From NCBI GenBank assembly GCA_048940645.1, contig JBHLOI010000016.1:1-64000 (forward strand): DNA of 64,000 nucleotides, given 5' to 3'. Below are positions 3,938 through 48,426 of the stretch, piece after piece (positions within the stretch are counted from its first letter, which is position 1; the number at the start of each line of letters is the position of its first letter). The translations under genes were made by a program, and so were the position numbers. This DNA is from Promethearchaeota archaeon (GTDB lineage: Archaea; Asgardarchaeota; Lokiarchaeia; Sigyniarchaeales; SOKP01). The notes below the pieces were generated by a model. It saw only the letters and a program-made list of their open reading frames with translations, did not search any database and was not told where the DNA came from.

Positions 3938-3940
3938 AAA

Positions 3941-30236: not shown

Positions 30237-30330
30237 AAAGAAGATTTTTTCAATATATATGAAAAAGTTGCACTTAATTTTTTATTAGAAAATAAAATCC
30301 TTTACTTAAAACTCATTTTGAATTTGAAAA

Positions 30331-31167: not shown

Positions 31168-31200
31168 ATCTTAATAAATTATTAATGAGTGAATCTGATT

Positions 31201-32130: not shown

Positions 32131-32210
32131 AGCTAAAATTTTTGATGACAAAATGAGGGTAGCTTTAAATAAAATAAGTATAGTTATTTGACTTTCAAAA
32201 AAGTGATTTT

Positions 32211-32609: not shown

Positions 32610-32692
32610 ATTTTTATCCATAGGCTTTAGAAATAACTCCTTAATTTTTCTGAAATTAATAAACCCATTTAAATTTTTATTAAAAAGCAAAA

Positions 32693-33712
32693 TTATATTA
32701 TATGATTTTCTATTTCATCCATACTTGCTTTGTAATTATTTATACCTTTAACTAGCGAATGATAATTCCTGCCATATCTAACTTGACCATAAGGAGTTTG
32801 AACATCTGAATATCTTAATGTCAATTTTGCTGCAAAACTCAATATTTCACTATTTAAATTTCCGTGAATAACGGTTATTGGTCCTGGAACATTCTCAACT
32901 TCCATAATGATATCTTTTGGATTTTTTAATTTAATTAACTTCTTATTTTCAGATTGATTTCTTCCTACAATTATTTTAGAATCTTTGAATCGAAAGTGCC
33001 TCCCAAGTTTTAAAAGATTTATATCTTTCATGTTATAATTTTTGTTATATTCAAGATAATCTTCCATTCTTCTTGTAAATCCACTATCAGTCAACAAACA
33101 ACCTCCGCACGCATAATATTCATTCAATAAGCCATAATTTCTGGCTATATCAAGTTGAGTCTTTCTACTTCTACCATGTATTCCTAATAATTTTGATCTA
33201 TTAATCATCCCCTTTTTCTCTAAAATCGTTGGTTCTAATAATAATGCAGATAATGGCCTAAGTAGCTTTCCCTTCATACCAGTTTCTTCTTCAATAATGT
33301 TAAGTGCTTTTCTATTTTGAGATTTCGGTCTCTGGTTTAAAACTTCACCAGTAAATATAAAATCTGCTTCAATTTTTTTAGCTATCTTTTTTGCTTTTTT
33401 TAAAATATAAATTCGACAATCAATACAAGGATTTAAGTGACGTCCATAACCAAATTTTGGATTATTTACTATTTTTAAATAATCATCTTCTTTTTGACAA
33501 AAAAGAATTTCCATACCAAATTTTGAATAAAAAGTTTGCAGGCCACATTCTGAATTTTTATAAGCTTTATCGCATATACAGAAAGGTGATTTGAAATTTA
33601 AACCAATGACTTCAATATTTTGTAATTTTAGAATATGAGTTGCTATTAAACTATCTAGTCCCCCCGAGATAAGACCAAGCCCTAGAATTTTATTATTCCT
33701 AATTATGTTCAC
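32693..33712 (-). CDS. PP-loop tRNA thiolase (ThiI/MnmA-like) with DUF814-like C-terminus
   Basis: SGGLDS, NPCIDCR, GEVLNQRPKSQ, GGCLLTD, GRHFR, IVGRN. Confidence 0.82.
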   Translation of the reverse strand: MNIIRNNKILGLGLISGGLDSLIATHILKLQNIEVIGLNFKSPFCICDKAYKNSECGLQTFYSKFGMEILFCQKEDDYLKIVNNPKFGYGRHLNPCIDCRIYILKKAKKIAKKIEADFIFTGEVLNQRPKSQNRKALNIIEEETGMKGKLLRPLSALLLEPTILEKKGMINRSKLLGIHGRSRKTQLDIARNYGLLNEYYACGGCLLTDSGFTRRMEDYLEYNKNYNMKDINLLKLGRHFRFKDSKIIVGRNQSENKKLIKLKNPKDIIMEVENVPGPITVIHGNLNSEILSFAAKLTLRYSDVQTPYGQVRYGRNYHSLVKGINNYKASMDEIENHII

Positions 33713-33732
33713 TTAAATCGATTTTAATTCCT

Positions 33733-33996
33733 TTAGATCCTTTTTAATCTTAATATCCATGTATCTTCCTCAGTATTTATGCGCTTTATTTCTAATACTT
33801 CGGCAAGTTTTTGTCTAGTACAACTATCTGGAATATTTTTTAACGCAGGTGTATAATCTAACATAACTTCCAGAATTTCTCCTTCTTTAAGCTTTTCAAG
33901 AGCTAATTTGGTATAAACAAAAGTCATAGGACAAACTCTACCTCTTATATCTATACTTTTTACATTTTCAGAGGTTAGACTATTATTTATTGACAG
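33733..33996 (-). CDS. tusA: TusA/SirA sulfurtransferase, probable CTG start
   Basis: Frame is open upstream of ATG 33927 and contains IDIRGRVCPMT (catalytic Cys); CTG at 33996 follows GGAGGGG. Confidence 0.85.
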   Translation of the reverse strand: MSINNSLTSENVKSIDIRGRVCPMTFVYTKLALEKLKEGEILEVMLDYTPALKNIPDSCTRQKLAEVLEIKRINTEEDTWILRLKRI

Positions 33997-34793
33997 ATAT
34001 TACCCCTCCCATAATCTAATATCTCAACTAAATCGAGAGCATCTTTTTTACATGCTAAACAATCTGGATCCTTATACAAATCAATGAAGTTAAAACTATA
34101 GTTTAGAAGATCTACATATAAAATCCTATTAATTATTAAATCTCCAATGTTTAAAATATATTTAATCGCCTCGTTTGCCTCAAGACATCCTATAACCCCT
34201 GGAATTAAGCCAATTACTCCTGCTTGAGAACAAGACATTCCTTCATCACCAATGGAAACATCACCAAAAACACATCTGTAGCAAGCAGTTTCCCTTTCAG
34301 GGATAACTGTTATTATCTGACCGTGGAACCTTAAGACACCAGCAATAGTAAATGGTATTCCTAAATTGATGCAAGTATCATTAACCAACATTTTTGTCGG
34401 AAGATTATCAGAACCTTCTATTACAAAATTAGAGTCTTTCAAGAGCTCTTTTGAGTTAGATGATGTTAATCTTTCATTAATTATTTCAATATTACAATCA
34501 GGATTCAACAACTTTAATTTTTGAAAAGCACTATAAGTCTTCTTTCTATGGATATCATTTGTGTAATGAAGTATTTGGCGATGTAAATTCGAAGATTCGA
34601 CCCTATCGAAATCAATTATTCTTAAATTACCAATACCTGCTGCTGCTAAATAATAGGCTGCGGGGGATCCCAAAGCACCTAAACCAATTAAGGTAATTTT
34701 CGAAGATAATAACTTTTCCTGACCAATTCCTCCAACTTCTTTTAAGACAATTTGTCTTGAATACCTTTCAATTTGCTCTTCAGATAATTCCAT
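33987..34793 (-). CDS. moeB: MoeB/ThiF/UbaA E1-like adenylyltransferase
   Basis: RYSRQI, GLGALG, SNLHRQ, DNLPTK, CYRC, SCSQAG, CLAC. Confidence 0.92.
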   Translation of the reverse strand: MELSEEQIERYSRQIVLKEVGGIGQEKLLSSKITLIGLGALGSPAAYYLAAAGIGNLRIIDFDRVESSNLHRQILHYTNDIHRKKTYSAFQKLKLLNPDCNIEIINERLTSSNSKELLKDSNFVIEGSDNLPTKMLVNDTCINLGIPFTIAGVLRFHGQIITVIPERETACYRCVFGDVSIGDEGMSCSQAGVIGLIPGVIGCLEANEAIKYILNIGDLIINRILYVDLLNYSFNFIDLYKDPDCLACKKDALDLVEILDYGRGNICQ

Positions 34794-34946
34794 TATTTAA
34801 AATATTCAGTAAATTTCTTGATACAGATATACCTTTAAACTATTTAAAAATAAGTGCAATAATTACAATAAAATTTTTTTCTATACCCTAAATCTGATTA
34901 AATTTATTATCCTGTTTGATTTCTAGCTTTAGTTTACATTTATTTA

Positions 34947-35162
34947 TTAATAAGCTATTAAATATGTATGCTTTGTTAAATCAAACGGTTCAATAATGAT
35001 ACCATTATGCTTTTCCTTATCAATATTTAAAGGAATTTTTAAAACAAACTTTTCCTCTTTTAAATAGACATTTTCATAAAATCGATTCATTGATTTATCA
35101 TAATCAAGAAATTTATTCAGGTTTATTTTTTTTCTTTTATTAATTATTGAATACATTATCAA
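34947..35162 (-). CDS. Possible small hypothetical protein
   Basis: 71-aa ORF in an otherwise empty gap, no motif. Confidence 0.3.
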   Translation of the reverse strand: MIMYSIINKRKKINLNKFLDYDKSMNRFYENVYLKEEKFVLKIPLNIDKEKHNGIIIEPFDLTKHTYLIAY

Positions 35163-35406
35163 ATCCTTGATTAATTATTTGAAATAAAATCACATAGTTT
35201 TAGAGAAAATACCCTAAATAAATTAACGCATTATATCATATCAAACAGTTATAATTTTGTCTTATATGATAGAAAGTATTGATTTTATAAATGAAAAAAA
35301 CTGTTTATAAATGTAAAAAAACTTATTTTTTAAATTATAGACCATGCATGGAAGGTATAATCAGGATACTTACTCCTATTGACAACTTGTAAATTAAATT
35401 TTTTCT

Positions 35407-36354
35407 CTAAAAAGGGAATCTTTTTATTTTATCTATGGTCTCTGAATCAAATTTAGAAAGAGCATAAGAGGCAACAGGCACAATACACCCACAATTTTCG
35501 CATAATAGTGGAGAATTACCCATTACACAAAATTTCCGTTGACCATTAGGGTAATAACTTTTTACACCTCCCCTTTTAAAAATGCAATATGGTACAAACT
35601 CTTTTGTAATATATAATTCAAGCATTTTCTTAGAAATTAAAATAAAATCACCATAATCCCTCAAAACTTTTAATATACTCCCAGCTACAGATTTTAATCT
35701 TTCTCCCTTTACTAATAAGGGATCATAAGGATATCCTGTATAAATCAAAAAGAATATACCTGATACGCCTGTCTCATAAGCAATTTTTACTACGCTTCCA
35801 ACTTCTTTATAATTTAACGCTGTTATGGTAGTGGATATTAAAACCCTCTTATCATTTTCAATATTTTCAATTACTTTATGAAAAATATTCGCACCACGAA
35901 TAGAATTATGCATTTTTTCTCCACCATCCAAACTAACCCAATAAACAGGCTGTTTTTGATGTTTAAACCATGGTAGTTTTAAAATTCCATTTGAAGCGAT
36001 TTGTACAGAGGGAAAAAGTTTTACGGCTTTATGCAATAAGCCCATTCTAAGAGTAGGCTCTCCTCCTGTTAATGATGCACTTATGATCCCCATATCACTA
36101 TGATATTTAAAAACTTTAAGCCATTGGTCATCTGTCAACTCTTGTCTACTTTTTGCTGAATTAGACTTCAATTCTTTAGTAGAAGCTATGAAGTAACAAT
36201 GTTTACATCTTAAATTGCACTGCCATGTTAAATCATAGTTTACACTTAAAGGAATTTTCCTTGATCTGTATTTTAAAAAATAGAATCCCCCTAAGATCCC
36301 TTTTCTAATATTTTCTAATGTCAGTAATTTAGGTTTGGGGTTCGAGTTTACCAC
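35407..36354 (-). CDS. Radical SAM protein with C-terminal auxiliary Cys cluster
   Basis: CNLRCKHC, TGGEP, SLDG, C-terminal C..CVM..CENCGC. Confidence 0.9.
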   Translation of the reverse strand: MVNSNPKPKLLTLENIRKGILGGFYFLKYRSRKIPLSVNYDLTWQCNLRCKHCYFIASTKELKSNSAKSRQELTDDQWLKVFKYHSDMGIISASLTGGEPTLRMGLLHKAVKLFPSVQIASNGILKLPWFKHQKQPVYWVSLDGGEKMHNSIRGANIFHKVIENIENDKRVLISTTITALNYKEVGSVVKIAYETGVSGIFFLIYTGYPYDPLLVKGERLKSVAGSILKVLRDYGDFILISKKMLELYITKEFVPYCIFKRGGVKSYYPNGQRKFCVMGNSPLLCENCGCIVPVASYALSKFDSETIDKIKRFPF

Positions 36355-36451
36355 CTATTTTATTATCAAACATATTAATCAGAAATAATCTATTTTACTT
36401 TATTACTTTATTTCAAAAAACATTTAATATAATTGTATTGTAGTTAAGATT

Positions 36452-36787
36452 ATGGATAATAAAGTTGAGGAGTATATAGAAAACCAAAAATCTCCCCAAA
36501 AAGAGATTTGCCAAAAATTGAGGGAAATTATATTAAACAAATTCCCTAATATTAAAGAAGAAATGAAATATGGAGTTCCTTATTATGGAAATAAATATTA
36601 TATTGTTGCTCTAAAAACTCATGTCAATCTGGGTTTCTCAATTACGGATTTAACAAAAAAAGAGTTATCTCTTTTAGAAGGTAAGGGTAAAACAACGAGG
36701 CATCTTAAAGTTAATTCCTTTGAAGAAATTGATGAAGGACAAATCTTGAAGTTGTTAAAAATGGTAATGGATAAACAATCTTTATAA
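36452..36787 (+). CDS. DUF1801 (YdhG-like) protein
   Basis: KEEMKYGVPYY, HVNLGF, LEGKGKTTRHLK. Confidence 0.85.
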   Translation: MDNKVEEYIENQKSPQKEICQKLREIILNKFPNIKEEMKYGVPYYGNKYYIVALKTHVNLGFSITDLTKKELSLLEGKGKTTRHLKVNSFEEIDEGQILKLLKMVMDKQSL

Positions 36788-36807
36788 AATACTTTTTTTC
36801 TTAAGAA

Positions 36808-37623
36808 TTACATTTTGGAGACAAAATATCTGAATTTATTACTCTCATCATTAATTTCCCATGCGTGAAAAAAGTCAAATGGAATTTTACTTTCCCAAAG
36901 AATTTCAATATTTTTTACTCCACTGTAAAGATCTGTTAAAAGCGTCTTATCACATGGATATTTTCTATGTGAAGGATAAAGCTCAACAATTTTTTGTTTT
37001 TCACATAATTTTATTAATCTAGAAAGAGTATCAAGAACTTGAGGAAAATTTTCTCGTTTAGGTAAAAATTGATCACCATAGTAGGCTACATCACTTGTAA
37101 AAAGTTCGCTTTTGCTTGTAAGTAGACATATTGAACCAGGAGAATGTCCTGGACAATGGATAACTTCTATTTCTAATCCTCCTAAATCAAAAATATCCTT
37201 ATCTTTTAAAGTTTTAATCAATTTTGCTGGAGGAATTAAAAAGTTTTGTTTCGCATAGTGATTAACAATTTCATTAGGAGAATCTTTTAAATATGAAACA
37301 TCATAAGGTTTCGAAACAATATCAGATTCATTTTCATGAACATAAATTTCTCCAAATTCAACATTTCCTAAAACATGATCCCAATGAGTGTGTGTATTGA
37401 AAACTAATAACTTTCTTTTACCAATTAAATCATCCACAACTGGTTTTAAAGGATAAAGTCCACATCCTGTATCAAGTAAAAGAGCAGTGTGAGCTCCTAA
37501 AATTAAATACATATTGAGAGGATCGTTAGTATAAACAGGATGGACAATGGATATATTTTCTTGAATTACAAATAAGTAATCCTTATGTTTTGAAGTTTTA
37601 AAATACTGTTTATTATTACTCAT
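36808..37623 (-). CDS. Metallo-beta-lactamase fold hydrolase
   Basis: LDTG, THTHWDH, PGHSPGS, SD, PSH. Confidence 0.9.
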   Translation of the reverse strand: MSNNKQYFKTSKHKDYLFVIQENISIVHPVYTNDPLNMYLILGAHTALLLDTGCGLYPLKPVVDDLIGKRKLLVFNTHTHWDHVLGNVEFGEIYVHENESDIVSKPYDVSYLKDSPNEIVNHYAKQNFLIPPAKLIKTLKDKDIFDLGGLEIEVIHCPGHSPGSICLLTSKSELFTSDVAYYGDQFLPKRENFPQVLDTLSRLIKLCEKQKIVELYPSHRKYPCDKTLLTDLYSGVKNIEILWESKIPFDFFHAWEINDESNKFRYFVSKM

Positions 37624-37742
37624 AGTTCAACTAATGTATAAAGCAGATTTAATTATAATTGTTTATTACATTATTTAATTGCTTAAAATAATATAAATTC
37701 ATAAGAAAATTTAAGTAAAAAAAATTTAATTTGCTGATATTT

Positions 37743-38897
37743 ATGGATTTTTCGTTAACAGAAAAACAGAAAATGATTAGAGAGAAAACCCGAGAATTTT
37801 GCGAGGAATGTATTATCCCTGTAGCTGAGGAATCAGACCAAAAACAGGAATTAGATCCTATTGTTATGGAGAAAATGAAAGAAATGAACTATTTTGGCTC
37901 ATGTATCCCTGAAGAGTATGGGGGTGCGGGTTTACATAATGATACGATAGCTTTTGCCATAGTTACAGAAGAGATTGGGAGAGTAGATGCTTCTTGGTCT
38001 ATTACAACTGGAGTTCATTGTAGTGTTTGCACATATCCTATTTATAGGTTTGGCACTGAGGAACAAAAGCAACAATTTCTTATTGATCTTGCTAAAGGTA
38101 ATAAAATTGGTGCATTTTGTTTAACTGAAGCCAACGCTGGTTCTGATGCTGGAGGTGTCCAATTGACTGCAGAAAAAGATGGTGATGAGTATATTTTGAA
38201 CGGATCTAAAATATTTGCTACTAATGGAGGAATTGCAGAAACTTTATTAGTTGTTGGTAAAACTGGTGAAAAAGGTGGTAGAAAGGAATTGACAGTGTTT
38301 ATCGTAGATACAAATACTCCAGGATATTCTGTTGGTGTAAAAGAAGATAAATTAGGTGTCAGAGCATCAAATACTTCAGAACTCGTTTTTGACAATGTAA
38401 TAGTGCCAGAAGAAAATATTTTAGGTCAAGTAGGTGCAGGATTCAGATTGGGGCTCCAAATTCTGGATTATGGCAGAATTACGATTGCTGCTCAGTGTCT
38501 TGGGCTAGCTCAGGGTTGTTTAGAAGCTGCTGTTAAATATGCAAACGAACGAGAACAATTTGGACAAAAAATTGCCAGATTTCAAGGGATTCAATGGAAG
38601 ATTGCTGATATGACTACAGCTGTAGAATCATCGCGATTACTTACTTATAAAGCAGCGTGGATGTGTGATCAAGGTATGGATTATGGATTAACAGCATCAA
38701 TGGCGAAATTAGTTGCTTCTGAAGCAGGAATGATGGCAGCACATCAAGCAGTGCAGATCCATGGTGGATATGGTTTAATGAAAGCTTACCCTGTTGAAAG
38801 AATGTTTCGAGATGCGAAGATGGGTGAGATTTATGAAGGTACAAGTGAAATCCAAAGAATGGTTATAGCAAATCACATGTTAAGACAAAAATATTAA
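37743..38897 (+). CDS. Acyl-CoA dehydrogenase (butyryl-CoA dehydrogenase-like)
   Basis: CLTEANAGSDA, NGSKIFATNG, REQFG, QIHGGYG, IYEGTSEIQR. Confidence 0.95.
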   Translation: MDFSLTEKQKMIREKTREFCEECIIPVAEESDQKQELDPIVMEKMKEMNYFGSCIPEEYGGAGLHNDTIAFAIVTEEIGRVDASWSITTGVHCSVCTYPIYRFGTEEQKQQFLIDLAKGNKIGAFCLTEANAGSDAGGVQLTAEKDGDEYILNGSKIFATNGGIAETLLVVGKTGEKGGRKELTVFIVDTNTPGYSVGVKEDKLGVRASNTSELVFDNVIVPEENILGQVGAGFRLGLQILDYGRITIAAQCLGLAQGCLEAAVKYANEREQFGQKIARFQGIQWKIADMTTAVESSRLLTYKAAWMCDQGMDYGLTASMAKLVASEAGMMAAHQAVQIHGGYGLMKAYPVERMFRDAKMGEIYEGTSEIQRMVIANHMLRQKY

Positions 38898-39002
38898 TTT
38901 TGAATTTTTTATATTCTTTTATTTATTAGTTTTATATCTTTCTTAGCACACCAAATTGAGATTTCAAATTTATGCTATTCAAGGTAAATGGTATTAATAT
39001 TA

Positions 39003-39045
39003 ATGAATTTTTCATTGAAATTAGATGCTGAATTTATCTTTCCAT
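39003..39045 (+). repeat. Dispersed repeat copy A (core CTGAATTTATCTTTCCAT at 39028)
   Basis: 34/42 identity to copy B by hand alignment; core shared with copy C. Confidence 0.7.
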
Positions 39046-39168
39046 TCCAATTTCACAGAAAATTGGGACACAATTCATTTTATTAATGATACATTGGAAT
39101 ACTATAAACCCAAATGAGGATAAATATATAATATAATATATTGTAATATTAATAACAAAACTTCAGAA

Positions 39169-40008
39169 GTGAATCATTTTATAACTATCCTTAAAAACCC
39201 AAATCAGACTGAAATTGAATATGCAATTGAATTCAATCTTTATGAATTTTTTAGATCGATGGTACATAGTGATCTTAAAGATAACCTATATGAAGAGTCT
39301 GAGGGGTTCTCCAGATTCTCAACGGGTGTCTCATTTTTTTTCTTTAATGGGGTAATAGATAATCATATTTCCTCAGAAAATATCACGAAAACAATAAAGG
39401 AAAACATTACTTTCTTTGAAAAGAGACAAGTACCCTTTCTCTGGGTACTTGGCCCATCAAGTACTCCTAAAAATATGGGAGAACTATTAATTAAAAATGG
39501 ATTCATCGTTGATAAACTTCAGGGTATGGCTTATAACCTAAAAATGATGAACACAGAAAGAGAACTTTTAAATAAAGTAAAGATAGTGAAGGTTGAAAGT
39601 ATGGATAATCTAAAAGTGTGGAATAACATAATTTTAACGGGTTTTGATTTTCCAGAAGAAGTACGACCTAATTTCTTTTTCGAAGCGTTCTTATTTATAC
39701 TTTTGAACAATAGAGCCTCTGCAAGTGCATTCTTAGCATATTATGATGGAAATCCTGTCGCTTCTTCATTAGTATTATATAAAGCAGGTGTTGCAGGTAT
39801 TCATATGGTTACTACATTAGAAGAAGCACGTAGGAAAGGGATTGGTACTGCTATAACTCTTGGCTCCCTAAGCGAGGCTAAGAAATTAGGATATGAGATT
39901 GCAATTCTTCACTCAACTGAGATGGGTTTAAATATGTATAAATGGATGGGTTTTAAGGAATATTGCCCGATAGAATTGTTTATATGGCAACTTGACTCGA
40001 AGGACTAA
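39169..40008 (+). CDS. GNAT acetyltransferase
   Basis: PFLWVLGPS, VTTLEEARRKGIG, LHSTEMG..MY..MGF. Confidence 0.88.
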   Translation: MNHFITILKNPNQTEIEYAIEFNLYEFFRSMVHSDLKDNLYEESEGFSRFSTGVSFFFFNGVIDNHISSENITKTIKENITFFEKRQVPFLWVLGPSSTPKNMGELLIKNGFIVDKLQGMAYNLKMMNTERELLNKVKIVKVESMDNLKVWNNIILTGFDFPEEVRPNFFFEAFLFILLNNRASASAFLAYYDGNPVASSLVLYKAGVAGIHMVTTLEEARRKGIGTAITLGSLSEAKKLGYEIAILHSTEMGLNMYKWMGFKEYCPIELFIWQLDSKD

Positions 40009-40015
40009 TCTTTTC

Positions 40016-40058
40016 ATTAAATTTTTATTGAAATCAGACTCTGAATTTACCTTTTCAG
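40016..40058 (+). repeat. Dispersed repeat copy B (core CTGAATTTACCTTTTCAG at 40041)
   Basis: Core forms CTGAA-N8-TTCAG inverted repeat. Confidence 0.7.
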
Positions 40059-40108
40059 CGAAGATTACTGAATTATAGCCCATCTTTATGCACTTGCTTA
40101 CATCTTTC

Positions 40109-41032
40109 TCAATAGTAATAGAAATATTTACCCTCACGGTATCCTCGGTGTACATCGTCACGAGAATACAACTTATCTAATCCATCTCCGATTTGCTCTG
40201 GAGTTGTTCCATTGAATTCCTGAGGCATACCCAATTTATCTTTTCTTTTCCAAATTGCATCAGGAGTGAAAGCACTTCCTTGATTGTTGACCAGAAATTC
40301 GAATAAATAATACTCAAAGTCAGAAGGTTTTAATCGGGATTCATAATTAATTTCATACTTACTTAATTCATGAGTTTTTAATAGGGTTTTTTCTATTAGG
40401 TCAAAAATCATGGCTCTTCTACAACGGAAATCTTGCTTATTTTCTTGTTTATCTCTTGTTGAAGCAATCGTGAATCTGATCTCTTTCAAGCCTGATTCAT
40501 ACAGAGGATAAAGAGGTATGGAATAAGTTAAAGTAGACGTTCTTTCTATGTTAAATGCCTTAATAATGGGCAGATTACAATTAAAATTTTGCAGCATCTC
40601 TTTTGAAAGTGTCTTTGCAAGCTCATTCTCTATTAAATCTTCAAACGAGTGTATTTCTCGTTCAACATCAGATTTTACTATTGATGACAATGCGCCTGTT
40701 CCAATAGGTCCGGCCAATAGTCCGGCTGCAATAATTGCAGCTGTCTGCTTTCCAGTAAATTTTGATCTCACTTCTTTAGTAAACCCAATCCCAGCAATCC
40801 TTAAATTTGTAAGGAGTAATTTTCCTTCAAAAACTTTGTTACCCCAATTTGCCTTCCCCTTAAAAGAGGCCACTAGATGTTCTCGTTCATTATTTTCGAA
40901 ATATGAATTATCCTGCTCGCTTTCTATCAGAACTCTGCTCCCTTCTTGGTCGATATGAGGAGTACCACACTCAGGACAGATATTCCAGTCATCGAGTATT
41001 TCCTTTCCACAATTTGTACAATATTTGCTCAT
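40109..41032 (-). CDS. Zn-ribbon + PH/GRAM-like + hydrophobic Gly-rich segment + C-terminal winged-helix-like protein
   Basis: CTNCG..CPECG, EGKLLLTNLRI, AAIIAAGLLAGPIG, C-terminal LFEFL..NQGSAFT...GKYFYY. Confidence 0.7.
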   Translation of the reverse strand: MSKYCTNCGKEILDDWNICPECGTPHIDQEGSRVLIESEQDNSYFENNEREHLVASFKGKANWGNKVFEGKLLLTNLRIAGIGFTKEVRSKFTGKQTAAIIAAGLLAGPIGTGALSSIVKSDVEREIHSFEDLIENELAKTLSKEMLQNFNCNLPIIKAFNIERTSTLTYSIPLYPLYESGLKEIRFTIASTRDKQENKQDFRCRRAMIFDLIEKTLLKTHELSKYEINYESRLKPSDFEYYLFEFLVNNQGSAFTPDAIWKRKDKLGMPQEFNGTTPEQIGDGLDKLYSRDDVHRGYREGKYFYYY

Positions 41033-41125
41033 TTTTTTCTACACAAAATTTTTACCACTTGATTATATGACTCCTGATTTAATAAAGATTCGTATCTATA
41101 ATTATATTTTAATTCACTAAATTCA

Positions 41126-41143
41126 CTGAATTTACCTTTCCAT
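41126..41143 (+). repeat. Dispersed repeat copy C (CTGAATTTACCTTTCCAT)
   Basis: 17/18 identical to core A; first 14 nt identical to core B. Confidence 0.7.
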
Positions 41144-41240
41144 ATCAAAAGAAATTCATGTGTTCAAGTTTCACAATTATTAAGGTTCTGCTTGAGATTC
41201 TTGAATTCTTATAATTTCTTAATTTTTTAGAAATAGGTTT

Positions 41241-41726
41241 TTATTCTTTAATATCAATATTTTTTATCAATTCTTCAAATTCTTTCTTTAAAAGAAAACC
41301 CTTATAGGATAAAGTTTCCTTAATTTCTTCTAATATATTGTCTAAATTTGAAAAACTTAATTTTTTAATTTGAGATTCTATCTGGTTGAATTTTTCCTTT
41401 AGCGTTTTATTTTCTAAATTAAAATTGGATACTTCATGTTCTTTTGATATAACGTTATTTCTTATTTCTTCAATCTCTTTATCAATAAAAGCTAATTTTA
41501 ATTTTGATTTTTCTAAAATAATTTCTAACTTTTTAATTTCTTCTTCTACATATCCTAATTTTGCCTTTATTTCTCTAGATTTGTTTCTATGTTCCCCCAA
41601 TGATGTTATTAATTCACTTATCAGTTGATTTTGTTGTTTGATTTCTATCTCTTTTTTGTTCAGTTCTTTCTCTAAATTGGTAATTATTCCATTAATATCC
41701 TCGGATTTAACAGGCCAATCGAACAT
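41241..41726 (-). CDS. Coiled-coil protein, paralog of 43379-43861
   Basis: MFDWP start, heptad-rich middle, KETLSYKGFLLKKEFE end; ATG 41726 gives 161 aa. Confidence 0.8.
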   Translation of the reverse strand: MFDWPVKSEDINGIITNLEKELNKKEIEIKQQNQLISELITSLGEHRNKSREIKAKLGYVEEEIKKLEIILEKSKLKLAFIDKEIEEIRNNVISKEHEVSNFNLENKTLKEKFNQIESQIKKLSFSNLDNILEEIKETLSYKGFLLKKEFEELIKNIDIKE

Positions 41727-41804
41727 TTGAATATGGTATTTAATATTTCTATTAAGAATTAGTATAAACAATCCTAAAAAAATTTAATCCTATATGTAAA
41801 AACT

Positions 41805-43172
41805 TCAAATTTTTCTCATTTTCATAACTTTCTTTTTTTTAAAGATGGAATTAAGAAATAAATTTTGATTATTAGAATAAGTTAAAGGAATAACATCTGA
41901 AATAACTTCTTTTTTAAGTATTTGATGGGTTTTCTCTTCCACATTTGAAACAATTTTATGGACTGTAATTATTGGAATGGTAGGGGTTATTAAACAATAG
42001 TAACAAAAGCAACGTCTCCTTGTAATGTCTAAAATTTCCAATAATTTTTCTACACTTGCATCACTATCAACAGTTAATTCAATTTGATAATTATCAATCA
42101 TAGGAATATAATCTTCAATCCCAAAACCAGTTGTTAAGTCGATATATTGTTTTACCTTTATTTTCATGCTTCTTAACTCAATTCCCTCAATTGCAGCCCA
42201 TTTAGCAAATGCAGCGGAAAAGTTTCCAGCAAGACCTGCCATACAAAGATGGACCGGGTGAAATGAAGTTCCTCCGCCCCCTAATATTGTTGTTTCATCT
42301 GTTTGGATAAGTATGTCTCCTGCCCTTTCAGTTGGTAAAGTTGTTTGATATTGGGGACCATATTCCACGTCTAATCTCCATGTACCTTCAACATCTAAAA
42401 CTTTCTTACATAAGGAACGATTTTGAGAATACTTTCCTTGAATATCTTTAAATCCTTTCACGTTTATCCGGTTTAGGATGTAATTATCAGACTCAGGATT
42501 TCTAACCTCTAAACTTTTAGTTCTACCTTCAAGACCAGAATACTCTTTATTTAAAAGTATAGTTGGAAAGACAGCTGTTGCGGCACAATAATAGCAAAAG
42601 CAGCGTAGTTTGGTGAGTTCTACTATTTCACGGAGTTTTTCCATATTAGTATCACTTTCAATAAATAAATCTAAATGATAACTATCTATCATTGGGACAT
42701 AATCCTCAATTCCAAAACTACTTGTTAAATCAATATTTGCTTTTGCTCTTATTTTTAAAGTTTTTAATTCTATTCCCTGCATTGCTGCCCATTTTGCGAA
42801 AGCTGCGGTAAAACAACCCCCAAACCCTGCCATACATAAAGAAATTGGGTGAATTGCAGTACCCCCTCCACCTAATAAGGTCGTTTCATCAGTTTGTACG
42901 AGTATTGCCCCTGCTTTTTCAGTTCGTAATTGTGTCTCGAATTGTGGTCCATATTGAACTCCTAATCGCCATATGCCTTCAATTTCTAAGTACTTTTTAC
43001 AAAGAGATCGATCTTCTGTATACTTTCTCTTTATTGCTTTAAAACCTTCTAAATTTATCCTATTAAGAACGTTTTTCCTTTGACGAGATGCTTTACTCTC
43101 ATAATAAAGCATTTTTTCTTCAAGTTTTCTCAATATTTCATTGAAGCCTTCTTTATCTGCCTGATTATCCAT
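41805..43172 (-). CDS. Tandem OsmC/Ohr-like domain protein
   Basis: Two internal repeats with TDE..LGGGGT..HP...MAG..GC and RCFCYYC. Confidence 0.82.
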   Translation of the reverse strand: MDNQADKEGFNEILRKLEEKMLYYESKASRQRKNVLNRINLEGFKAIKRKYTEDRSLCKKYLEIEGIWRLGVQYGPQFETQLRTEKAGAILVQTDETTLLGGGGTAIHPISLCMAGFGGCFTAAFAKWAAMQGIELKTLKIRAKANIDLTSSFGIEDYVPMIDSYHLDLFIESDTNMEKLREIVELTKLRCFCYYCAATAVFPTILLNKEYSGLEGRTKSLEVRNPESDNYILNRINVKGFKDIQGKYSQNRSLCKKVLDVEGTWRLDVEYGPQYQTTLPTERAGDILIQTDETTILGGGGTSFHPVHLCMAGLAGNFSAAFAKWAAIEGIELRSMKIKVKQYIDLTTGFGIEDYIPMIDNYQIELTVDSDASVEKLLEILDITRRRCFCYYCLITPTIPIITVHKIVSNVEEKTHQILKKEVISDVIPLTYSNNQNLFLNSIFKKKKVMKMRKI

Positions 43173-43378
43173 GTTCTATCGTTCTTTTCTACTTTATAAT
43201 ATTCGAATTGAATTTAATTCAATTATTAGTTTTTTTAATTATTGATAAAAATACTATTTTTTATAATTAACGAGTTTATGATTTTTATACTAAAAAAATC
43301 TTAGAAGTTAAATTAAAACTTTTTTATTATTAGCTTTTAATTGTTAAAAAGAGAGATAATTAAGTAGAAATTTTTTTT

Positions 43379-43861
43379 TTATATTTCTTCTCCCTTTTCT
43401 AATTTTTCATATTCTTTATCAGATAAAAAACCTTTTTGAGCTAAAATTTCCTTGATTTTATTTAATAAAATCTCAAATTTAGAGCCATTTATTTCTTGAG
43501 TTTCCTTCTCCTTTTTGGAAATTAACTCTTTTAAATCAGTGTTATTTGAACTTAAATTTGATAGTTCTTCATCAAGTTCTTTTATTCTATTTAGTAGTTC
43601 TTCCTTTTCTGCTATTAATGAGGATAATTTTGTATTAGAAGATATTAATTCTTCTTCTAAATCTGATATCTTTTGTGTTGCAAAATCTAATTTAGCTTCT
43701 ATCTCATTAAGATTATTCATAGATATTTCTAAATCTTTATTTAAACTTTCTATTTTTTCGTTTTTTTGTTTTAATTCGATTTCTTTTTGAGATATTAGTT
43801 TTTCAAAATCCTCTATTATCTCATCTGGTTCCCTTTTTACGTAAGGCCAATCATCTGACAT
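43379..43861 (-). CDS. Coiled-coil protein, paralog of 41241-41726
   Basis: MSDDWP start, heptads, KEILAQKGFLSDKEYE end. Confidence 0.82.
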   Translation of the reverse strand: MSDDWPYVKREPDEIIEDFEKLISQKEIELKQKNEKIESLNKDLEISMNNLNEIEAKLDFATQKISDLEEELISSNTKLSSLIAEKEELLNRIKELDEELSNLSSNNTDLKELISKKEKETQEINGSKFEILLNKIKEILAQKGFLSDKEYEKLEKGEEI

Positions 43862-43871
43862 TTTATTATTG

Positions 43872-43964
43872 TATTTTGATTAATGAATAATTGATTTTGA
43901 TTAAATCAATATTTTGATTAATGAATAATTGATTTTGATTAATGATTAATGAATAATCATTAAT
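43872..43964. repeat. 33-bp direct repeat plus 11-bp-arm palindrome upstream of coiled-coil gene
   Basis: TATTTTGATTAATGAATAATTGATTTTGATTAA at 43872 and 43910; ATTAATGATTA-N5-TAATCATTAAT at 43938-43964. Confidence 0.85.
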
Positions 43965-44026
43965 ATGATTATTATAAATTCTTCTTATAAATATATCTAA
44001 ATTAATACTAGTAAATAGTTCTTGAA

Positions 44027-44419
44027 TTAACCATATTCTTTTAGTGAATCTTGAATAACATCTTCAAAGCAAAGAAATGGTTTAATGTTACAATCCCAAT
44101 TATTAAATATCTCTGGAGGATAGGCATTAAAGAATTTTTCTATTACTTTATCTAATTCTTTTACGATCTTTTTTTCTTTTTTTTTTTCTGAATGATCAGT
44201 TACAAATAAAATGTCATTCTTCTTTTTAAGAAAAATTGTTTTATCACTAATTACAAAATTTGAGATAATATCTTCAAATAATCCTGTTTCTGCAAAAGTA
44301 TTAAGCGATGAAATAATTGCTCCAAAAAGTTGTTCATCAATAATTGGTTCATATTTACGATGAAATATAACTGATCCTGTATTTGTCAGAATCCAGATAT
44401 TTTGTAATATTTTTCCCAT
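44027..44419 (-). CDS. Longin-like domain protein
   Basis: IWIL..TG..IFHR...DEQLFGAIISSLNTFA, then beta strands and helix ending F..W.C..F. Confidence 0.75.
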   Translation of the reverse strand: MGKILQNIWILTNTGSVIFHRKYEPIIDEQLFGAIISSLNTFAETGLFEDIISNFVISDKTIFLKKKNDILFVTDHSEKKKEKKIVKELDKVIEKFFNAYPPEIFNNWDCNIKPFLCFEDVIQDSLKEYG

Positions 44420-44519
44420 AATTAAAATCGTTGTTAGAATTTCAAATTAAACTAACTATTTACTCTATTTAATGAGTGTTATTTCACACTTTTAAATAAT
44501 TTCATTTATATAAAGTTTT

Positions 44520-45389
44520 TTAAATATTAATTAATTCTTCAGATAGGGAAACTGTATTACTTTTTTCATCGACTTTTAAGAGTTCTTTTACTTCCATTTG
44601 CTTAATAGTTCTTACAGCTAAAATTGGGGGTAAATCAATGTGTTTTTTTAATTCATCTAAATTACAATATTGTTTTTCTATTAACATTGTAATTATATCT
44701 AACTCAGGGATTTTCTCATCAGAATTTTCAATTAAAAACAAAGAAAAGAAATCATTTCTCTTAAATTCATTAAATTGCTTTTCCACTTCTTCAAGCTTTT
44801 TTGACCATTGATCTTTAATTTCTTTAATTTTATTTAAACCCATTTGGTCAAATTCCTTTAAATTCTTTTCATTTTTTATTTTAAATTCATCCAATTCTTT
44901 AGAATGAGCCGATAATGCATTTCTATGCTTTTCTTCATTGTCTCTTCTTTTTTGCTCTAAAGCTTCCTTCTCTGATTCTTTTGCAGACAAAGTTGATTCC
45001 ACAGTTTTTAATTTTAATTTAATACTTTCTAAGTCCTCTTTACAATCACTCAAATTTTTATCAATTTTATTATAAGAATCTTTTAGGGTATTAATTTCTG
45101 ATTTTAATTCATCAGTTCTATTCTGTGAATCCTGAAAATTCCTATTAATATCTTCATATTGAATTTGTAGCTTGAATAATTCTGAATCCAGATCCCGAAG
45201 CTCATCTTCTAATTTTTCATTTTCACTTTTCTCATCTTTCAATCTGATTAAGATACCCTTTAAGTTTTCAATGATCTTCTGACTATTATCTTGAAAAGAT
45301 TGATTGGCTTCTCCACTGCTTGAGATTAAGAACAATTGCTTAATTATCTTCTCTGAAAATTGTTCAATTAAATCAAGATTTATGCTCAT
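44520..45389 (-). CDS. Long coiled-coil protein with C-terminal winged-helix-like domain (B)
   Basis: Heptads to about aa 210, then IPELDII..CNLDELKKHIDLPPILAVRTIKQM..LLKVDE..TVSL. Confidence 0.78.
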   Translation of the reverse strand: MSINLDLIEQFSEKIIKQLFLISSSGEANQSFQDNSQKIIENLKGILIRLKDEKSENEKLEDELRDLDSELFKLQIQYEDINRNFQDSQNRTDELKSEINTLKDSYNKIDKNLSDCKEDLESIKLKLKTVESTLSAKESEKEALEQKRRDNEEKHRNALSAHSKELDEFKIKNEKNLKEFDQMGLNKIKEIKDQWSKKLEEVEKQFNEFKRNDFFSLFLIENSDEKIPELDIITMLIEKQYCNLDELKKHIDLPPILAVRTIKQMEVKELLKVDEKSNTVSLSEELINI

Positions 45390-46240
45390 CGCTTAAATTC
45401 AACCTCTTTCTGTAAGGTTATTAATCCATTTTTCTCATTAAAATTAACAGGTCCTCCCTCAGCTATCATCTTTTTTATTATCTTTTCTGCTTTTTGAGGA
45501 TCATAATTTAACGTTTGGCAAATGAAACTTAGTTCCATGGGTTTATCTTTTTCTAAGGCACTAATAAAATTAAATAACTCTGAATTAATCATTCTATTTC
45601 TTATTAATAGATTTATAGCTTTAGTTTTAACTTTAAATGGTTTAAAACCCTCTAGGCATTTTTTATATTCTTGTTCGTTTTCAACTTCTATTTCCTTTAT
45701 TTTACTATTCAGTTCTTCTTCTTTTTTTGTTAAGATTTGATTATAACCTAATTTTAAAGCATTTATTTCTTGAATAATCTTTTCTTCTGCTTTTGATATA
45801 TCTTGGGTTTTTTCTTCCACTTTCTTCCAAGAATTATTGAGTTCTGATTTTAAATCTTCAATAAGTTGTTCTTTTTTGTCATATTCTCCTTTAAATTTCT
45901 CTTTTTCAGATTGAATCTCTTCTAATTCCTTCTTCTTTATTTCTAAATTCTTTTGAATTTCTTCTTGTCTTTTGGATAATTCACTGACCTCTGAATCAAC
46001 TTTCGGAATATCTTGGTTTAGTTGAAAGATTTTTACTTTTAAAGATTCAATATTATCTTTATTTGATTTGATTTTTTCAATATTACTATTTTTTTCTCTA
46101 TTAAAACTTTCTATCGCATCAAATATTTCATTTGGTTCTGCATCTAAACTAAGCTTATCATCTTTGATTGAATCATTAATTTTTTTTATAAATAAAAATA
46201 CTTTTTGCAAATTTGGAATTAAGTCAATAATTTGAGACAT
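45386..46240 (-). CDS. Long coiled-coil protein with C-terminal winged-helix-like domain (A)
   Basis: Heptads, then ELSFICQTLNYDPQKAEKIIKKMI..GPVNFNE..LITL; ATGA overlap with B. Confidence 0.78.
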   Translation of the reverse strand: MSQIIDLIPNLQKVFLFIKKINDSIKDDKLSLDAEPNEIFDAIESFNREKNSNIEKIKSNKDNIESLKVKIFQLNQDIPKVDSEVSELSKRQEEIQKNLEIKKKELEEIQSEKEKFKGEYDKKEQLIEDLKSELNNSWKKVEEKTQDISKAEEKIIQEINALKLGYNQILTKKEEELNSKIKEIEVENEQEYKKCLEGFKPFKVKTKAINLLIRNRMINSELFNFISALEKDKPMELSFICQTLNYDPQKAEKIIKKMIAEGGPVNFNEKNGLITLQKEVEFKR

Positions 46241-46401: not shown

Positions 46402-48426
46402 TTAGACATTTAATTTCCACGTAGAATAATCTTCAAATAATATACCTAAGTTACTGATACGATAGAAAATTTTTCCTTTTTCTGTTTCACCTATCAAAAA
46501 TCTTGCCTTACCCAGATTTCTGATACCTCTCATAATCCTAATTATTCTCATATGCGGCATATAAAAGGGAAATATCCTTTTTGTTATTCCAATCTCATCA
46601 GGAGTCATCCAACCTTTATTTTCATCTTTATAAAGGTATAAGGTATGGATAATTTTTATTTGATCTTCATTTAATTGATGATGAATTTCATCAAAATTAG
46701 TTTTTTCTTTTATATAGCGTTGAGGGAGTTCTTCTTGGTTATATAATAAATTTTCATCAATCGATTCCATATTGAAAATATCAGTTAGCAAAGTGGAAAT
46801 GTTATAGGTATTTTCATTCTCACTCCAAAAGTTTAAATCTTTATCTAAGCTAAAATTAATTTTATTTTGGGTACAGCCTCCGTAGTAAAAACAAAATAGT
46901 ATTTTTTCATCTGGCAAAGAACCTAATCTGTAAATAAAACCCATCAATTCTAATCTAGATATTAGATCTTTACTTTTAATCGTATTGTCATCGATGATAA
47001 AGAAACCATTAGGTTTTCCTTTAAAATCTTCTTTCATAACCCTAATTAATTTATCAATAAGATACTTGTCATGAATAATATCATGTTCAGAAAAATAATA
47101 GTTTGATTTTGATTCTTTTAAAAGTGAACTGAAATAATCTTTATAGAGAAACTCCCTATAAACAAATTCAGATGCTTCTATAATTCTATTAATTGATAGT
47201 TTACTTTTCATTTTTAAGGACATAATGCATTTAGGATGACTTAGAATTAATCCAATTAGCCTTGGAACATTCATAGACATAAAAAACAGATGTTTAAAAA
47301 AAGAAGATACATCATCGAAAAGGATATTTAACGTTTTAACATCTCTAAAAATATCAGCTAATTCAGAATTAAGGCTTTTAAATACTAATTGGATTGATGC
47401 ATCAATACCTCTCTGAATTCTTCTCTCATAAGGCTCATCTGAACATAACTTGCAATAATCTAATTCTATAGTTTGATAATCTTGTTGTTTTTTCAAAGAA
47501 CCTGTGTAATAGAGTTCAGGATAACACGCAATACAAAAGCATAAATCACTAACATCTTTAAATAAAGGTTCAACAAAACTTTCAATAATTATTTTCTGGT
47601 TAATAATTGAAATTTCTGAAAAATCATCTATAAAAAAATGAATATAATTTAATGGAAATTCTTTAATTAATTTTAAATCATTAAAAAGTTCTTTAAAACC
47701 GTTAATATCGAATAAATTTTTAAAAATAGTTGATAGTCCTTCATATTTCCCCGATTCTAATAATAATTTATTGTTATCACTAAAGTAAGAGATCTCTTCT
47801 ATACTCCTTTTTAAGATAGCATAATAATCTCTTAATTCTTCGGCATTAACCTTTGAAATAGGTAGATTTCTGTTTACTAAGTTATCTATCTGCTTATTAA
47901 TCAGATCTTCAATTTTAAGAAACATTGAATCACTTATAACACCCAATCCTCTCAACTCATCATAAGTATTTTCGACTTGTCGTATTAATTCTATATTTAA
48001 ATTTCTAATTAAATAAACGAGATCTTCAATATCATCTCCTTTTAACGAAATTTTATCAAGGACGTTTAAGAATAAATTTTTAATTTCAATATATATAGGT
48101 AGAACCATTTTTTCTTGTTTTAAATAATCCAAATCTTTTTTTATGAAAAAGGATTCAAGACACTCTGTTCTTGCTCTTTTTAAAATAGTAGTTTTACCAG
48201 TGCCTCTCCTACCGATTACGTAGTTTACTTTTCTTTCTTTTATAGTTTGGAAAAGGGCTTTAATGCAAATATCGTCAGGAATGAGTTGGACATAAGCTTT
48301 CTTTTGTTTTAATATCTCATCATAGCTTTCTCTTTCAAGGTTATTGTATCTTGCTAAATCTTTAAAAACTTTAATAACTTTTTCAATATCTGCATCTTTT
48401 AAGTTATCTAATGACATTAAATTCAC
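46402..48426 (-). CDS. P-loop ATPase, STAND/ORC-CDC6-like, with C-terminal wHTH
   Basis: Walker A GRRGTGKTT, Walker B FFIDDFSE, MNVPR motif, C-terminal MTPDEIG...IFYRIS..G. Confidence 0.75.
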   Translation of the reverse strand: MNLMSLDNLKDADIEKVIKVFKDLARYNNLERESYDEILKQKKAYVQLIPDDICIKALFQTIKERKVNYVIGRRGTGKTTILKRARTECLESFFIKKDLDYLKQEKMVLPIYIEIKNLFLNVLDKISLKGDDIEDLVYLIRNLNIELIRQVENTYDELRGLGVISDSMFLKIEDLINKQIDNLVNRNLPISKVNAEELRDYYAILKRSIEEISYFSDNNKLLLESGKYEGLSTIFKNLFDINGFKELFNDLKLIKEFPLNYIHFFIDDFSEISIINQKIIIESFVEPLFKDVSDLCFCIACYPELYYTGSLKKQQDYQTIELDYCKLCSDEPYERRIQRGIDASIQLVFKSLNSELADIFRDVKTLNILFDDVSSFFKHLFFMSMNVPRLIGLILSHPKCIMSLKMKSKLSINRIIEASEFVYREFLYKDYFSSLLKESKSNYYFSEHDIIHDKYLIDKLIRVMKEDFKGKPNGFFIIDDNTIKSKDLISRLELMGFIYRLGSLPDEKILFCFYYGGCTQNKINFSLDKDLNFWSENENTYNISTLLTDIFNMESIDENLLYNQEELPQRYIKEKTNFDEIHHQLNEDQIKIIHTLYLYKDENKGWMTPDEIGITKRIFPFYMPHMRIIRIMRGIRNLGKARFLIGETEKGKIFYRISNLGILFEDYSTWKLNV

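Follow-up and report, generated by a model that had tools for sequence, protein, structure and literature searches.

The window (the whole stretch of 64,000 nucleotides analysed) contains three exact copies of the 17-mer CTGAATTTAYCTTTYCA, termed A, B and C, at 39028-39044, 40041-40057 and 41126-41142. All three are on the + strand and are spaced 1013 and 1085 nt apart, as the original prediction had it, and no fourth match was found anywhere in the window at up to two mismatches. The chance expectation from shuffled sequences is 0.29 matches, and none of 100 shuffles reached three. The copies are also intergenic, as claimed. Copy A lies between the stop of an acyl-CoA dehydrogenase gene (38897) and the start of a GNAT gene (39169), copy B between the GNAT stop (40008) and the stop of a Zn-ribbon gene (40109), and copy C between the start of the latter (41032) and the stop of the next gene (41241). 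Pfam searches agree with the earlier assignment of one real gene to each repeat interval (GNAT on the + strand, Zn-ribbon protein on the - strand). The features are listed in Table 1.

Table 1. Genes, repeat copies and putative cassettes at the locus, with positions in the window.
Feature	Position	Strand	Evidence
Acyl-CoA dehydrogenase gene, conserved left flank of insertion point	37731-38897	+	Pfam
Putative junction site copy A, full form	39003-39069	+	nhmmer, model positions 2-68, E 4e-13
Putative cassette 1 (GNAT cassette), from behind core A to end of core B	39045-40057	+	
GNAT acetyltransferase gene, 279 aa, cargo of cassette 1	39169-40008	+	Pfam PF00583/PF13508
Putative junction site copy B, upstream arm and core, without downstream dyad	40016-40057	+	nhmmer, E 7e-11
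Putative cassette 2 (Zn-ribbon cassette), from behind core B to end of core C	40058-41142	.	
Zn-ribbon protein gene, 307 aa, orphan cargo	40109-41032	-	Pfam PF13240, N terminus only
Putative junction site copy C, core intact	41104-41142	+	nhmmer, E 3.6e-4
Coiled-coil protein gene, conserved right flank	41241-41771	-	tblastn synteny

Orthologues of the dehydrogenase are present in 34 genomes of the genus at 74-97% identity. In relatives without the site the coiled-coil gene directly adjoins the dehydrogenase gene; synteny of this right flank was followed by tblastn in G022, G013, G020, G045, G047 and G010. The GNAT gene has a patchy distribution across the genus, where six close orthologues were found (46-87% identity). 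No homologue of the Zn-ribbon protein was found in 41 genomes of the genus, and a search of 5.8 billion proteins returned one, on a contig that does not carry the repeat. The cassettes were also considered as foreign-looking DNA, which was rejected, their GC content (0.32-0.39) being like that of the genes around them. There are no tRNA genes in the window and, as predicted, no tyrosine recombinase, and no Rfam family matched across 36000-44000 at E values up to 5. The array had been placed at the edge of a SIR2/ATPase cluster. This proved incorrect: the SIR2-TPR and ATPase genes lie 5-8 kb rightward and are separated from the array by a conserved six-gene block.

A longer site, TTTTCAAAGGAATTTTCATTGAAATCAGACTCTGAATTTACCTTTC, has the 17-mer as its core, and some copies have a downstream dyad in addition. 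The conserved cassette end is ~48 bp long and consists of a T-run, the dyads TTTC-att-GAAA and TCAG-nnn-CTGA, and then the core GAATTTACCTTTC. A third dyad, CCAATTTC-nnnn-GAAATTGG, stands at the start of many cassettes together with a TATA-like stretch, which in full copies is AAAATTTAAAAAGG and follows that dyad. In copy A, which was aligned with 49 other full copies, the upstream arm with its two small dyads occupies 39003-39027, the core 39028-39044 and the downstream dyad CCAATTTCACAGAAAATTGG 39045-39069. Copies A and B are 80% identical across 45 nt, in line with the 34 identities over 42 nt first reported, and copy C stands at 67% over the same span. The upstream arm of copy C lacks the two small dyads, with ~17 nt gone in comparison with the TTCACTAAATTTTCATTGAAATCAG class of copies; copy C and several others have just ~17-20 nt in common with the rest, and most copies lack the left-end palindrome. 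The site sequence is 76% column-identical over 50 copies. Conservation drops sharply behind ACCTTTC, the centre of the second dyad is variable, and the right border of the site is sharp whereas the left side fades gradually.

Copy B had been read as CTGAA-TTTACCTT-TTCAG, with the arms and 8-nt spacer of a tyrosine-recombinase core. The reading of the letters is right, but B shares the inverted arm with only a minority of the other copies, the AG after CCTTTC being found in only 9 of 194 family members of the repeat, and such a core is not a conserved feature of the site. Single-stranded DNA folding was weak and no better than that of shuffles (z -0.4 to -2.2), the hairpins being just 4-8 bp and AT-rich, and there was no covariation (score 0.053, against 0.050 in shuffles). 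A folded DNA or RNA site, modelled as a three-way junction plus hairpin, was rejected on this lack of covariation and on an outer stem that is broken in 30-44% of copies.

The source genome carries ~17 copies of the site at 8 loci, and the single-contig genome G112 has 17 copies in at least six arrays. Of the 134 genomes of the Lokiarchaeia family to which the source genome belongs, 106 have the site, compared with 1 of the 26 genomes from outside this family; species without the site include G005, G023 and G003. A reversed control for the scan gave 14 matches as against several hundred. Its sequence is retained across genera whose other intergenic DNA cannot be aligned. Cassettes in arrays hold one to five genes in either orientation, though mostly one, and the 444 ORFs neighbouring copies fall into 340 clusters, 280 of them singletons. 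Acetyltransferases, methyltransferases, hydrolases and orphans are prominent among the cargo. A 26-mer of the site gave no hits in 2.9 million viral contigs; the 93 hits to the 15-mer core contain the bare core only (nhmmer E ~5e-4) and were read as chance. No published description of this cassette junction site was found.

Neighbouring copies were co-oriented in all 38 pairs counted (29/29 in 80 metagenome contigs and 9/9 in the source genome). The genes in arrays were on the same strand as the site in 33 cases and on the opposite strand in 33, and the genes next to the site were split 71:55 downstream and 76:66 upstream. The presence of the downstream dyad is not associated with the strand on which the following gene lies (p = 0.36). 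Since cassette genes face either way, a promoter or terminator is ruled out. A fixed distance between the motif and transcription starts, which had been named at the outset as evidence against a cassette array, was not found, there being no tie to gene starts or strand.

Comparison with relatives shows that genes are gained and lost precisely at the site and that the same cassette moves between loci. In the closest relative, G022, whose flanking dehydrogenase is 97% identical, one copy lies between the same two flanking genes. The 130-nt left flank of this copy matches that of copy A (119/131 identical, compared with ~55% to B and C), and its 110-nt right flank matches that of copy C (100/116 identical, compared with ~52% to A and B). 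In G013, G020, G045 and G047 a gap of 44-68 nt without any copy of the site separates the flanking genes, and contigs from the source-study runs bridge positions 38900 to 41259 and 38910 to 41224, representing site-less alleles. Some ~200 bp around the single site of G022 and the source genome is missing in G013, G045 and G047. The flanked genes are thus not syntenic and invariant, the other arrangement held at the outset to count against an array, as G022 has an empty site and four relatives have none. The GNAT cassette is missing at the orthologous locus in G022, G013, G020, G045 and G047, and the Zn-ribbon cassette in all relatives examined.

The GNAT cassette, including the downstream dyad and leader, was found in G019 and G047 too, bracketed by repeats but at different loci. 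The G019 locus corresponds to C7 in the source genome, where the flank behind a single copy is 92% identical over 5.1 kb. In G047 it is a carboxylesterase array that holds the cassette. In four species the carboxylesterase locus has stable synteny and no copies beside the gene, two of the four having a single opposite-strand copy two genes upstream, and in nine species the carboxylesterase is itself a cassette or lies beside copies, with neighbours that differ in each. The variant CTGGATTTA that is proper to the carboxylesterase cassette is common to the source genome (G000) and G047, and divergence begins right behind it. Twenty pairs of copies have one flank in common and the other not, with homology ending inside the repeat. 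The distance from gene end to upstream arm differs among copies of the same cassette.

The source-study runs were also checked for circular cassette junctions, and none was seen. In run X1, a joint going back 990 nt (39991 to 39002) and several joints skipping ~940-980 nt have short sides of 22-54 nt with a likeness of 88%; they fit related cassettes that have a full site behind them in other strains, and were rejected as evidence of circles. In run X5 both flanks are covered at ~98% identity and the two cassettes are not; as no contig bridges the gap, this run was not used as evidence.

We think it rather probable that the repeats are the junction sites of a gene-cassette system of one Lokiarchaeia family, in which a circular cassette recombines with a chromosomal site. 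The central reading of the original prediction, a cassette array with a non-attC site that is served in trans, is supported. A circular cassette with one site would recombine with a chromosomal site inside the 27-bp stretch GAAATCAGACTCTGAATTTACCTTTC, probably near TTTA/CC, and would come to be bracketed by two co-oriented sites. Repeated insertion would build arrays, and the reverse reaction would remove cassettes. At the source locus, the GNAT and Zn-ribbon cassettes may have been added to a single site or, in the case of G022, lost from it. Linkage of private variants (6 and 14 pairs) bounds the crossover to this dyad-plus-core stretch, and it could not be narrowed further because the core hardly varies and the pairs are too few. 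We infer that an enzyme acting in trans would recombine double-stranded DNA at the site conservatively and in a site-specific manner. It counts against the proposal that many scattered sites would expose the chromosome to deletions if recombination were frequent. The proposal is also weakened by the ~200 bp around the single site that three relatives lack, as it gives no account of how a site would first arrive at a new locus, and by the lack of a circular junction, of a positionally linked recombinase and of a clear dif-like core.

The source genome has a single PF00589 match, a XerA-type gene at 2645-3568 of contig C54, and the PF00589 match of G112 is also XerA-type only. A XerA-type gene is found in 38 of 42 genomes of the genus, one per genome and with few other recombinases, and genomes with up to 39 copies of the site have this gene only. 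PF00239, PF01797, PF01548 and PF07282 are absent from the source genome and G112, neither of which has TnpB, and the Y1 transposase domain PF01797 is absent from five genomes including the single-contig one. When G000, G112, G128, G140 and G101 were searched for IntI (TIGR02249), the best matches were XerA-type genes, which scored 46-56 bits against a cut-off of 265 and skip model positions ~188-232. A tblastn search of 512 kb of DNA around 177 copies, with XerA and seven integrases as queries, found no recombinase positionally linked to the site. The sole exception was metagenome contig L134, in which a 72-residue N-terminal fragment of a tyrosine integrase of ~305 aa lies on the strand of a repeat and stops 15 nt short of it. 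The genus has 12 accessory integrase loci, and no copy of the site was found in the ~2-16 kb examined around each. The only classical candidate is the chromosomal XerA-type tyrosine recombinase, which might be involved. However, XerA is also present in families and species without the site, and its presence therefore proves nothing. No 11-6-11 dif-like core was evident around the exchange region when judged by the general layout, and no palindromic dif-like variant of the core occurs elsewhere in the source genome.

Homologous recombination at 45-65 bp of portable homology might have the same outcome. It would need the general machinery after DNA uptake and no dedicated enzyme, and constant exchange would keep the repeat uniform. 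This predicts direct repeats and precise gain and loss equally well, and the lack of a linked recombinase in the 512 kb searched, the single-contig genome without an accessory recombinase and the varying gene-end to upstream-arm distances within the same cassette all speak for it. However, conservation is position-specific, with dyad arms that are invariant and centres that vary, and a sharp right border is set against a gradual decay on the left. Moreover, the sequence is kept across genera with otherwise unalignable intergenic DNA, and the ~17-20 nt common to copy C and several others is short for homologous exchange. We therefore regard homologous recombination as unlikely.

It is less likely still, and quite improbable, that the repeat is the attachment site of small integrase-bearing elements which stacked in tandem and later lost the integrase (CIME-like accretion). 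Accretion of this kind produces tandem co-oriented sites, and the L134 integrase fragment next to a repeat fits it. Set against this, none of the 12 accessory integrase loci has a nearby copy, the tblastn search revealed nothing beyond that fragment, genomes with up to 39 copies have the XerA-type gene only, the site is absent from the viral contigs beyond chance 15-mers, and the arrays stand at many loci rather than at a single tRNA or gene end. An element with a regulatory or punctuating role (a promoter, terminator or transcription factor site) or a REP/MITE-like selfish repeat, its place between variable genes being incidental, would account for sites that are always intergenic, the T-run ahead of them, the TATA-like stretch behind the third dyad and dyads that could bind a regulator, but is very improbable given that the neighbouring genes are randomly oriented on both sides, that genes and repeats are gained and lost together rather than repeats between conserved genes, that neither terminal inverted repeats at the borders of the site-bearing piece nor target duplications were seen, and that there is no Rfam match.

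The proposed cassette system shares features with several known ones. Clusters of attC sites without an integrase (CALINs) and integron arrays have been reported in Asgard archaea (Ghaly et al. 2022, PMC9668308). The likeness to these lies in rows of mostly single-gene cassettes, a conserved, co-oriented end site whose far edge is the point of exchange, content that differs between close relatives, arrays without a neighbouring integrase, and cargo types (acetyltransferases, methyltransferases, hydrolases and orphans). However, the site lacks attC ends, as first noted, with no GTTRRRY or RYYYAAC on either strand. Whereas attC is conserved in fold, the Lokiarchaeia site is conserved in sequence and has no R''/L''/L'/R' palindrome or stable hairpin. 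The genomes searched have no IntI and there is no attI/Pc platform. Integron cassette ORFs are mostly co-oriented and served by the platform promoter, but here both directions are equal (33:33), and in place of one platform there are many short arrays per chromosome.

Xer modules (IMEX at dif, such as Vibrio TLC/CTX and Neisseria GGI, and the pdif modules of Acinetobacter plasmids) likewise have no recombinase of their own. They use the housekeeping Xer of the host, and here the XerA-type gene is the only classical recombinase found and might play that part. They differ in that no 11-6-11 dif-like core could be recognised here, and the arrays are at many chromosomal loci and not at dif. A pdif module has inverted sites at its ends, but the Lokiarchaeia sites are direct. 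Tandem accretion and CIMEs at tRNA genes also feature stacked units, co-oriented attachment sites and integrase-less units mobilised in trans, but no integrase-bearing parent was found here, the sites are outside tRNA and gene ends, and the units are mostly of one gene. Finally, IS200/IS605 elements and PATEs resemble the present system in a TTAC just before the likely exchange point, small palindromes near both ends and a uniform orientation. They are unlike it in that no Y1 transposase (PF01797) or TnpB was found here, the hairpins are weak and the left-end palindrome is mostly missing.

Taken together, we put the chances as even that this family has a cassette-capture system of its own on a non-attC double-stranded site, which uses XerA away from dif or an unrecognised type of enzyme and exchanges orphan and accessory genes, hundreds of them, between species at many chromosomal loci. 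Lokiarchaeia now include cultured members, and a short, portable and conserved site could become a genetic tool for them. The site shows, to the base, where the chromosomes of more than 100 species in a single family gain and lose accessory genes, and is a searchable tag for the flexible gene pool of that family, many orphans included. This raises the question of what protein carries out recombination at a 48-bp site which is not attC and not obviously a dif. If it is XerA that acts here, a housekeeping archaeal Xer enzyme would have been exploited for gene capture; if it does not, a new recombinase would await discovery.

The 17-mer CTGAATTTAYCTTTYCA occurs in the window as three exact matches (copies A, B and C from left to right), of which 0.29 would be expected by chance in shuffled window sequence and three were never found in a shuffle. 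The copies occupy the three spacers around a GNAT acetyltransferase gene and a gene whose product has a zinc ribbon at its N terminus (Zn-ribbon). The original prediction of same-strand repeats that each bracket a single gene was borne out. Within the genome of the host, a Loki-type Asgard archaeon of 30% GC (G000; 3.8 Mb in 126 contigs, the window being contig C5), there were 10 matches at up to one mismatch, against none for a reversed control. A profile built from the copies extended this to around 17 members at 8 loci. The 17-mer represents the core of an extended site, for which 50 full copies gave the consensus TTTTTTCAAAGGAATTTTCATTGAAATCAGACnCTGAATTTACCTTTCCATnCCAATTTCAnAGAAAATTGGGACAAAATTTAAAAA. 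Across 194 distinct copies, conservation climbs gradually over ~45 nt on the left side, is nearly complete within CTGAATTTACCTTTC and drops abruptly directly behind it, at a sharp GAAAG/CTTTC edge, with a third dyad (CATTCCAATTTC...) continuing approximately 74 of these copies. The centre of the TCAG-nnn-CTGA dyad is freely variable, and the third dyad exists as two variants with matching arms (CCAATTTC..GAAATTGG and CCAATTTTC..GAAAATTGG), so that both of its arms have changed together. Of the three window copies, A is full and shares 80% identity across 45 nt with copy B, which lacks the third dyad, while copy C has kept the core and lost the ~17 nt with the first two dyads. Many full copies carry GGGACAAAATTTAAAAAGG behind the third dyad (e.g. 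L098:2676-2765, and in copy A). This stretch looks like an archaeal BRE/TATA element pointing at the next cassette, which it could drive, although a general role of this kind is unsupported by gene strand.

Features of the window, site copies in the host genome and features at compared loci
Feature	Location	Strand	Remark
Copies A, B, C	39028, 40041, 41126	+	Exact CTGAATTTAYCTTTYCA
GGGACAAAATTTAAAAAGG region	39045-39084		Behind third dyad
GNAT acetyltransferase gene	39169-40008	+	Between copies A and B
Zn-ribbon protein gene	40109-41032	-	Between copies B and C
Gene block	41241-46240	-	Coiled-coil, double-OsmC (455 aa), coiled-coil, longin-like and two further genes
33-nt AT-rich unit (TATTTTGATTAATGAATAATTGATTTTGATTAA)	43872-43963		In tandem, between 160-aa coiled-coil and longin-like genes
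ORC/Cdc6-like ATPase	46402-48426	-	674 aa
SIR2-TPR protein	49507-52347	-	946 aa; SIR2-like domain fused to long TPR repeats
Site copies in G000	C5		3
Site copies in G000	C88		5
Site copies in G000	C55		3
Site copies in G000	C92		2
Site copies in G000	C7, C107, C30, C68		One each
79-nt duplicated segment	C7 (reverse complement of 26001-36000), local 2840-2930 and 3880-3968		Just left of single junction site at C7:31130
Insert in relative G010	G010:C101 (L051, local 4218-4915)		700 nt
Integrase fragment	L134 (Ga0114925_10030789), ~705-930	-	72 residues, N-terminal

Another 34 genomes of the genus have clear orthologues of the acyl-CoA dehydrogenase gene that flanks the array on the left, and 20 of these loci were fetched for comparison. 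The dehydrogenase of one relative, G022, is 97% identical to that in the window and is followed by a single site, behind which come the three genes that also follow copy C (coiled-coil, double-OsmC, coiled-coil). The 130 nt left of the G022 core match the copy A flank (119/131 identical, compared with ~55% to B or C), whilst the 110 nt to its right match the copy C flank (100/116). A single copy with these flanks marks G022 as the empty site, and on this alignment the window is read as the same site with two cassettes added and the site regenerated at each joint. The ~200 bp around the single site are present only in G022 and G000. Four relatives (G013, G020, G045, G047) have no site between the two flanking genes, which lie 44-68 nt apart. 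Repeat-less alleles, bridging 38900 to 41259 and 38910 to 41224, were also recovered on contigs from the source-study runs, and these come from co-occurring relatives. In G010 the dehydrogenase/coiled-coil junction is occupied by an insert that contains a small ORF but lacks a site copy, showing that this spacer also gains DNA by other means. The gene block behind the array is syntenic in G013, G020, G045 and G010, and the coiled-coil genes flanking its OsmC gene (176 and 160 aa) are paralogues of 37% identity. A possible defence-type pair, made up of the ORC/Cdc6-like ATPase and SIR2-TPR genes, lies at a distance of 5-8 kb from the array.

GNAT orthologues (46-87% identity) were found in only six other genomes of the genus and are absent from the closest relatives. 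G019 has the GNAT gene between two sites of a three-copy array, complete with the third dyad and leader seen in the window; the counterpart of this locus on contig C7 of G000 has a single site, followed by a flank that is 92% identical across 5.1 kb. In G047 it lies within a seven-copy array adjoining a carboxylesterase gene. For the Zn-ribbon gene, 41 genomes of the genus yielded no homologue and a set of 5.8 billion proteins a single one (67% identity), on a repeat-less contig; its product is almost an orphan. A 79-nt gene-tail segment on C7 is duplicated ~960 nt apart, and is present once in G019, directly before the first repeat; the duplication may reflect a second, repeat-independent mode of gene stacking.

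A second variable locus was compared at the carboxylesterase gene, which adjoins the C88 array in G000. In four species (G014, G015, G044, G048) the gene has a fixed neighbourhood and no adjacent copies, with G014 and G048 each carrying one opposite-strand site two genes upstream. Site copies adjoin the gene in nine species. Three of these have a copy on each side, enclosing the carboxylesterase by itself in G047 and G004 and together with one extra gene in G055; in the others there is a copy on one flank, or the gene belongs to a longer multi-gene unit. Nearly all genes neighbouring the site-linked carboxylesterase are species-unique. In the site to the right of the gene, G000 and G047 have a private variant in common, CTGGATTTA, and their sequences diverge immediately behind it. 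The exchange would accordingly fall near TTTA|CC, a point that is also midway between the first dyad and the similar third dyad. Moreover, 20 copy pairs have one flank in common and not the other, with homology stopping inside the repeat, and the linkage profile confines exchange to the 27-bp dyad-plus-core stretch, no finer.

Adjacent sites were co-oriented in all 9 pairs in G000 and in 29/29 pairs from the 80 metagenome contigs found with a site, where spacing ranged from 369 to 2288 nt. The only neighbouring copies facing each other ([R-][R+]) were in the G055 carboxylesterase array (contig C48, L209), which could reflect an inversion or the junction of two arrays. The 444 ORFs near copies formed 340 clusters, 280 of them singletons. 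Recurrent cargo included beta-helix surface proteins, GNATs, hydrolases, radical SAM enzymes and methyltransferases, besides an FAD oxidoreductase, a kinase and DUF285 proteins, with no recombinase-like protein among it.

The mechanism is most likely conservative site-specific recombination, as we infer from conservation that is position-specific, a border that is sharp on one side, and the copies with only the core in common. Alternatively, exchange could proceed by homologous recombination. An integron was rejected: IntI was not found, the sole match to TIGR02249 being the XerA-type gene (scoring 46-56 bits where the cut-off is 265), whose alignment skips the IntI-specific insert. As had been claimed for the site, attC ends are absent, and there is neither a hairpin signal nor covariation, which weighs against a folded junction; the site is conserved in sequence and not in shape, the opposite of attC in bacterial and archaeal integrons (PMC9668308). 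An IS200/IS605-like element shares the TTAC at the border and similar palindromes at both ends, but no Y1 transposase or TnpB was found in G000 or the single-contig genome G112. A promoter or terminator is excluded by in-array genes lying on the same and opposite strands in equal number (33:33) and by the lack of strand preference either side of a site; the third dyad likewise showed no association with next-gene strand (p = 0.36). Copies are tied to neither the starts nor the strand of genes, which counts against a transcription-factor site. A REP or MITE is excluded since genes and repeats are gained and lost together. The site had no match in Rfam, and a full-text literature search returned archaeal integrons (PMC9668308) and Asgard mobile-element studies but nothing on the site.

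Genomes of the genus encode one conserved XerA-type tyrosine recombinase each and a few accessory integrases, around which no site was found within the ~2-16 kb fetched. A tblastn search of 512 kb around copies with XerA and seven integrases gave only one fragment, on the metagenome contig L134. This derives from a ~305-aa tyrosine integrase of the family found at G008:C32 and G017:C82, stops 15 nt short of a co-oriented junction site, and is the sole integrase trace among 177 copies. G112 (3.3 Mb) holds 17 site copies in at least 6 arrays, and its recombinase inventory consists of the XerA-type gene only, with no serine recombinase, Y1 transposase, IS110-type enzyme or TnpB. The lack of a recombinase near copies, together with this inventory, indicates an enzyme acting in trans; candidates are XerA, a protein of unrecognised type and one that is not encoded on the chromosome.

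With up to 2 mismatches allowed in 19 fixed bases, the site was found in 106/134 genomes of the family, including 36/41 of the host's genus and 53/54 of a second genus, compared with 1/26 from the other families of the class. The survey gave several hundred matches against 14 for a reversed control. Ordinary intergenic DNA is unalignable even within the genus; a site so widely kept amid such DNA would be under constraint, or spread by transfer.
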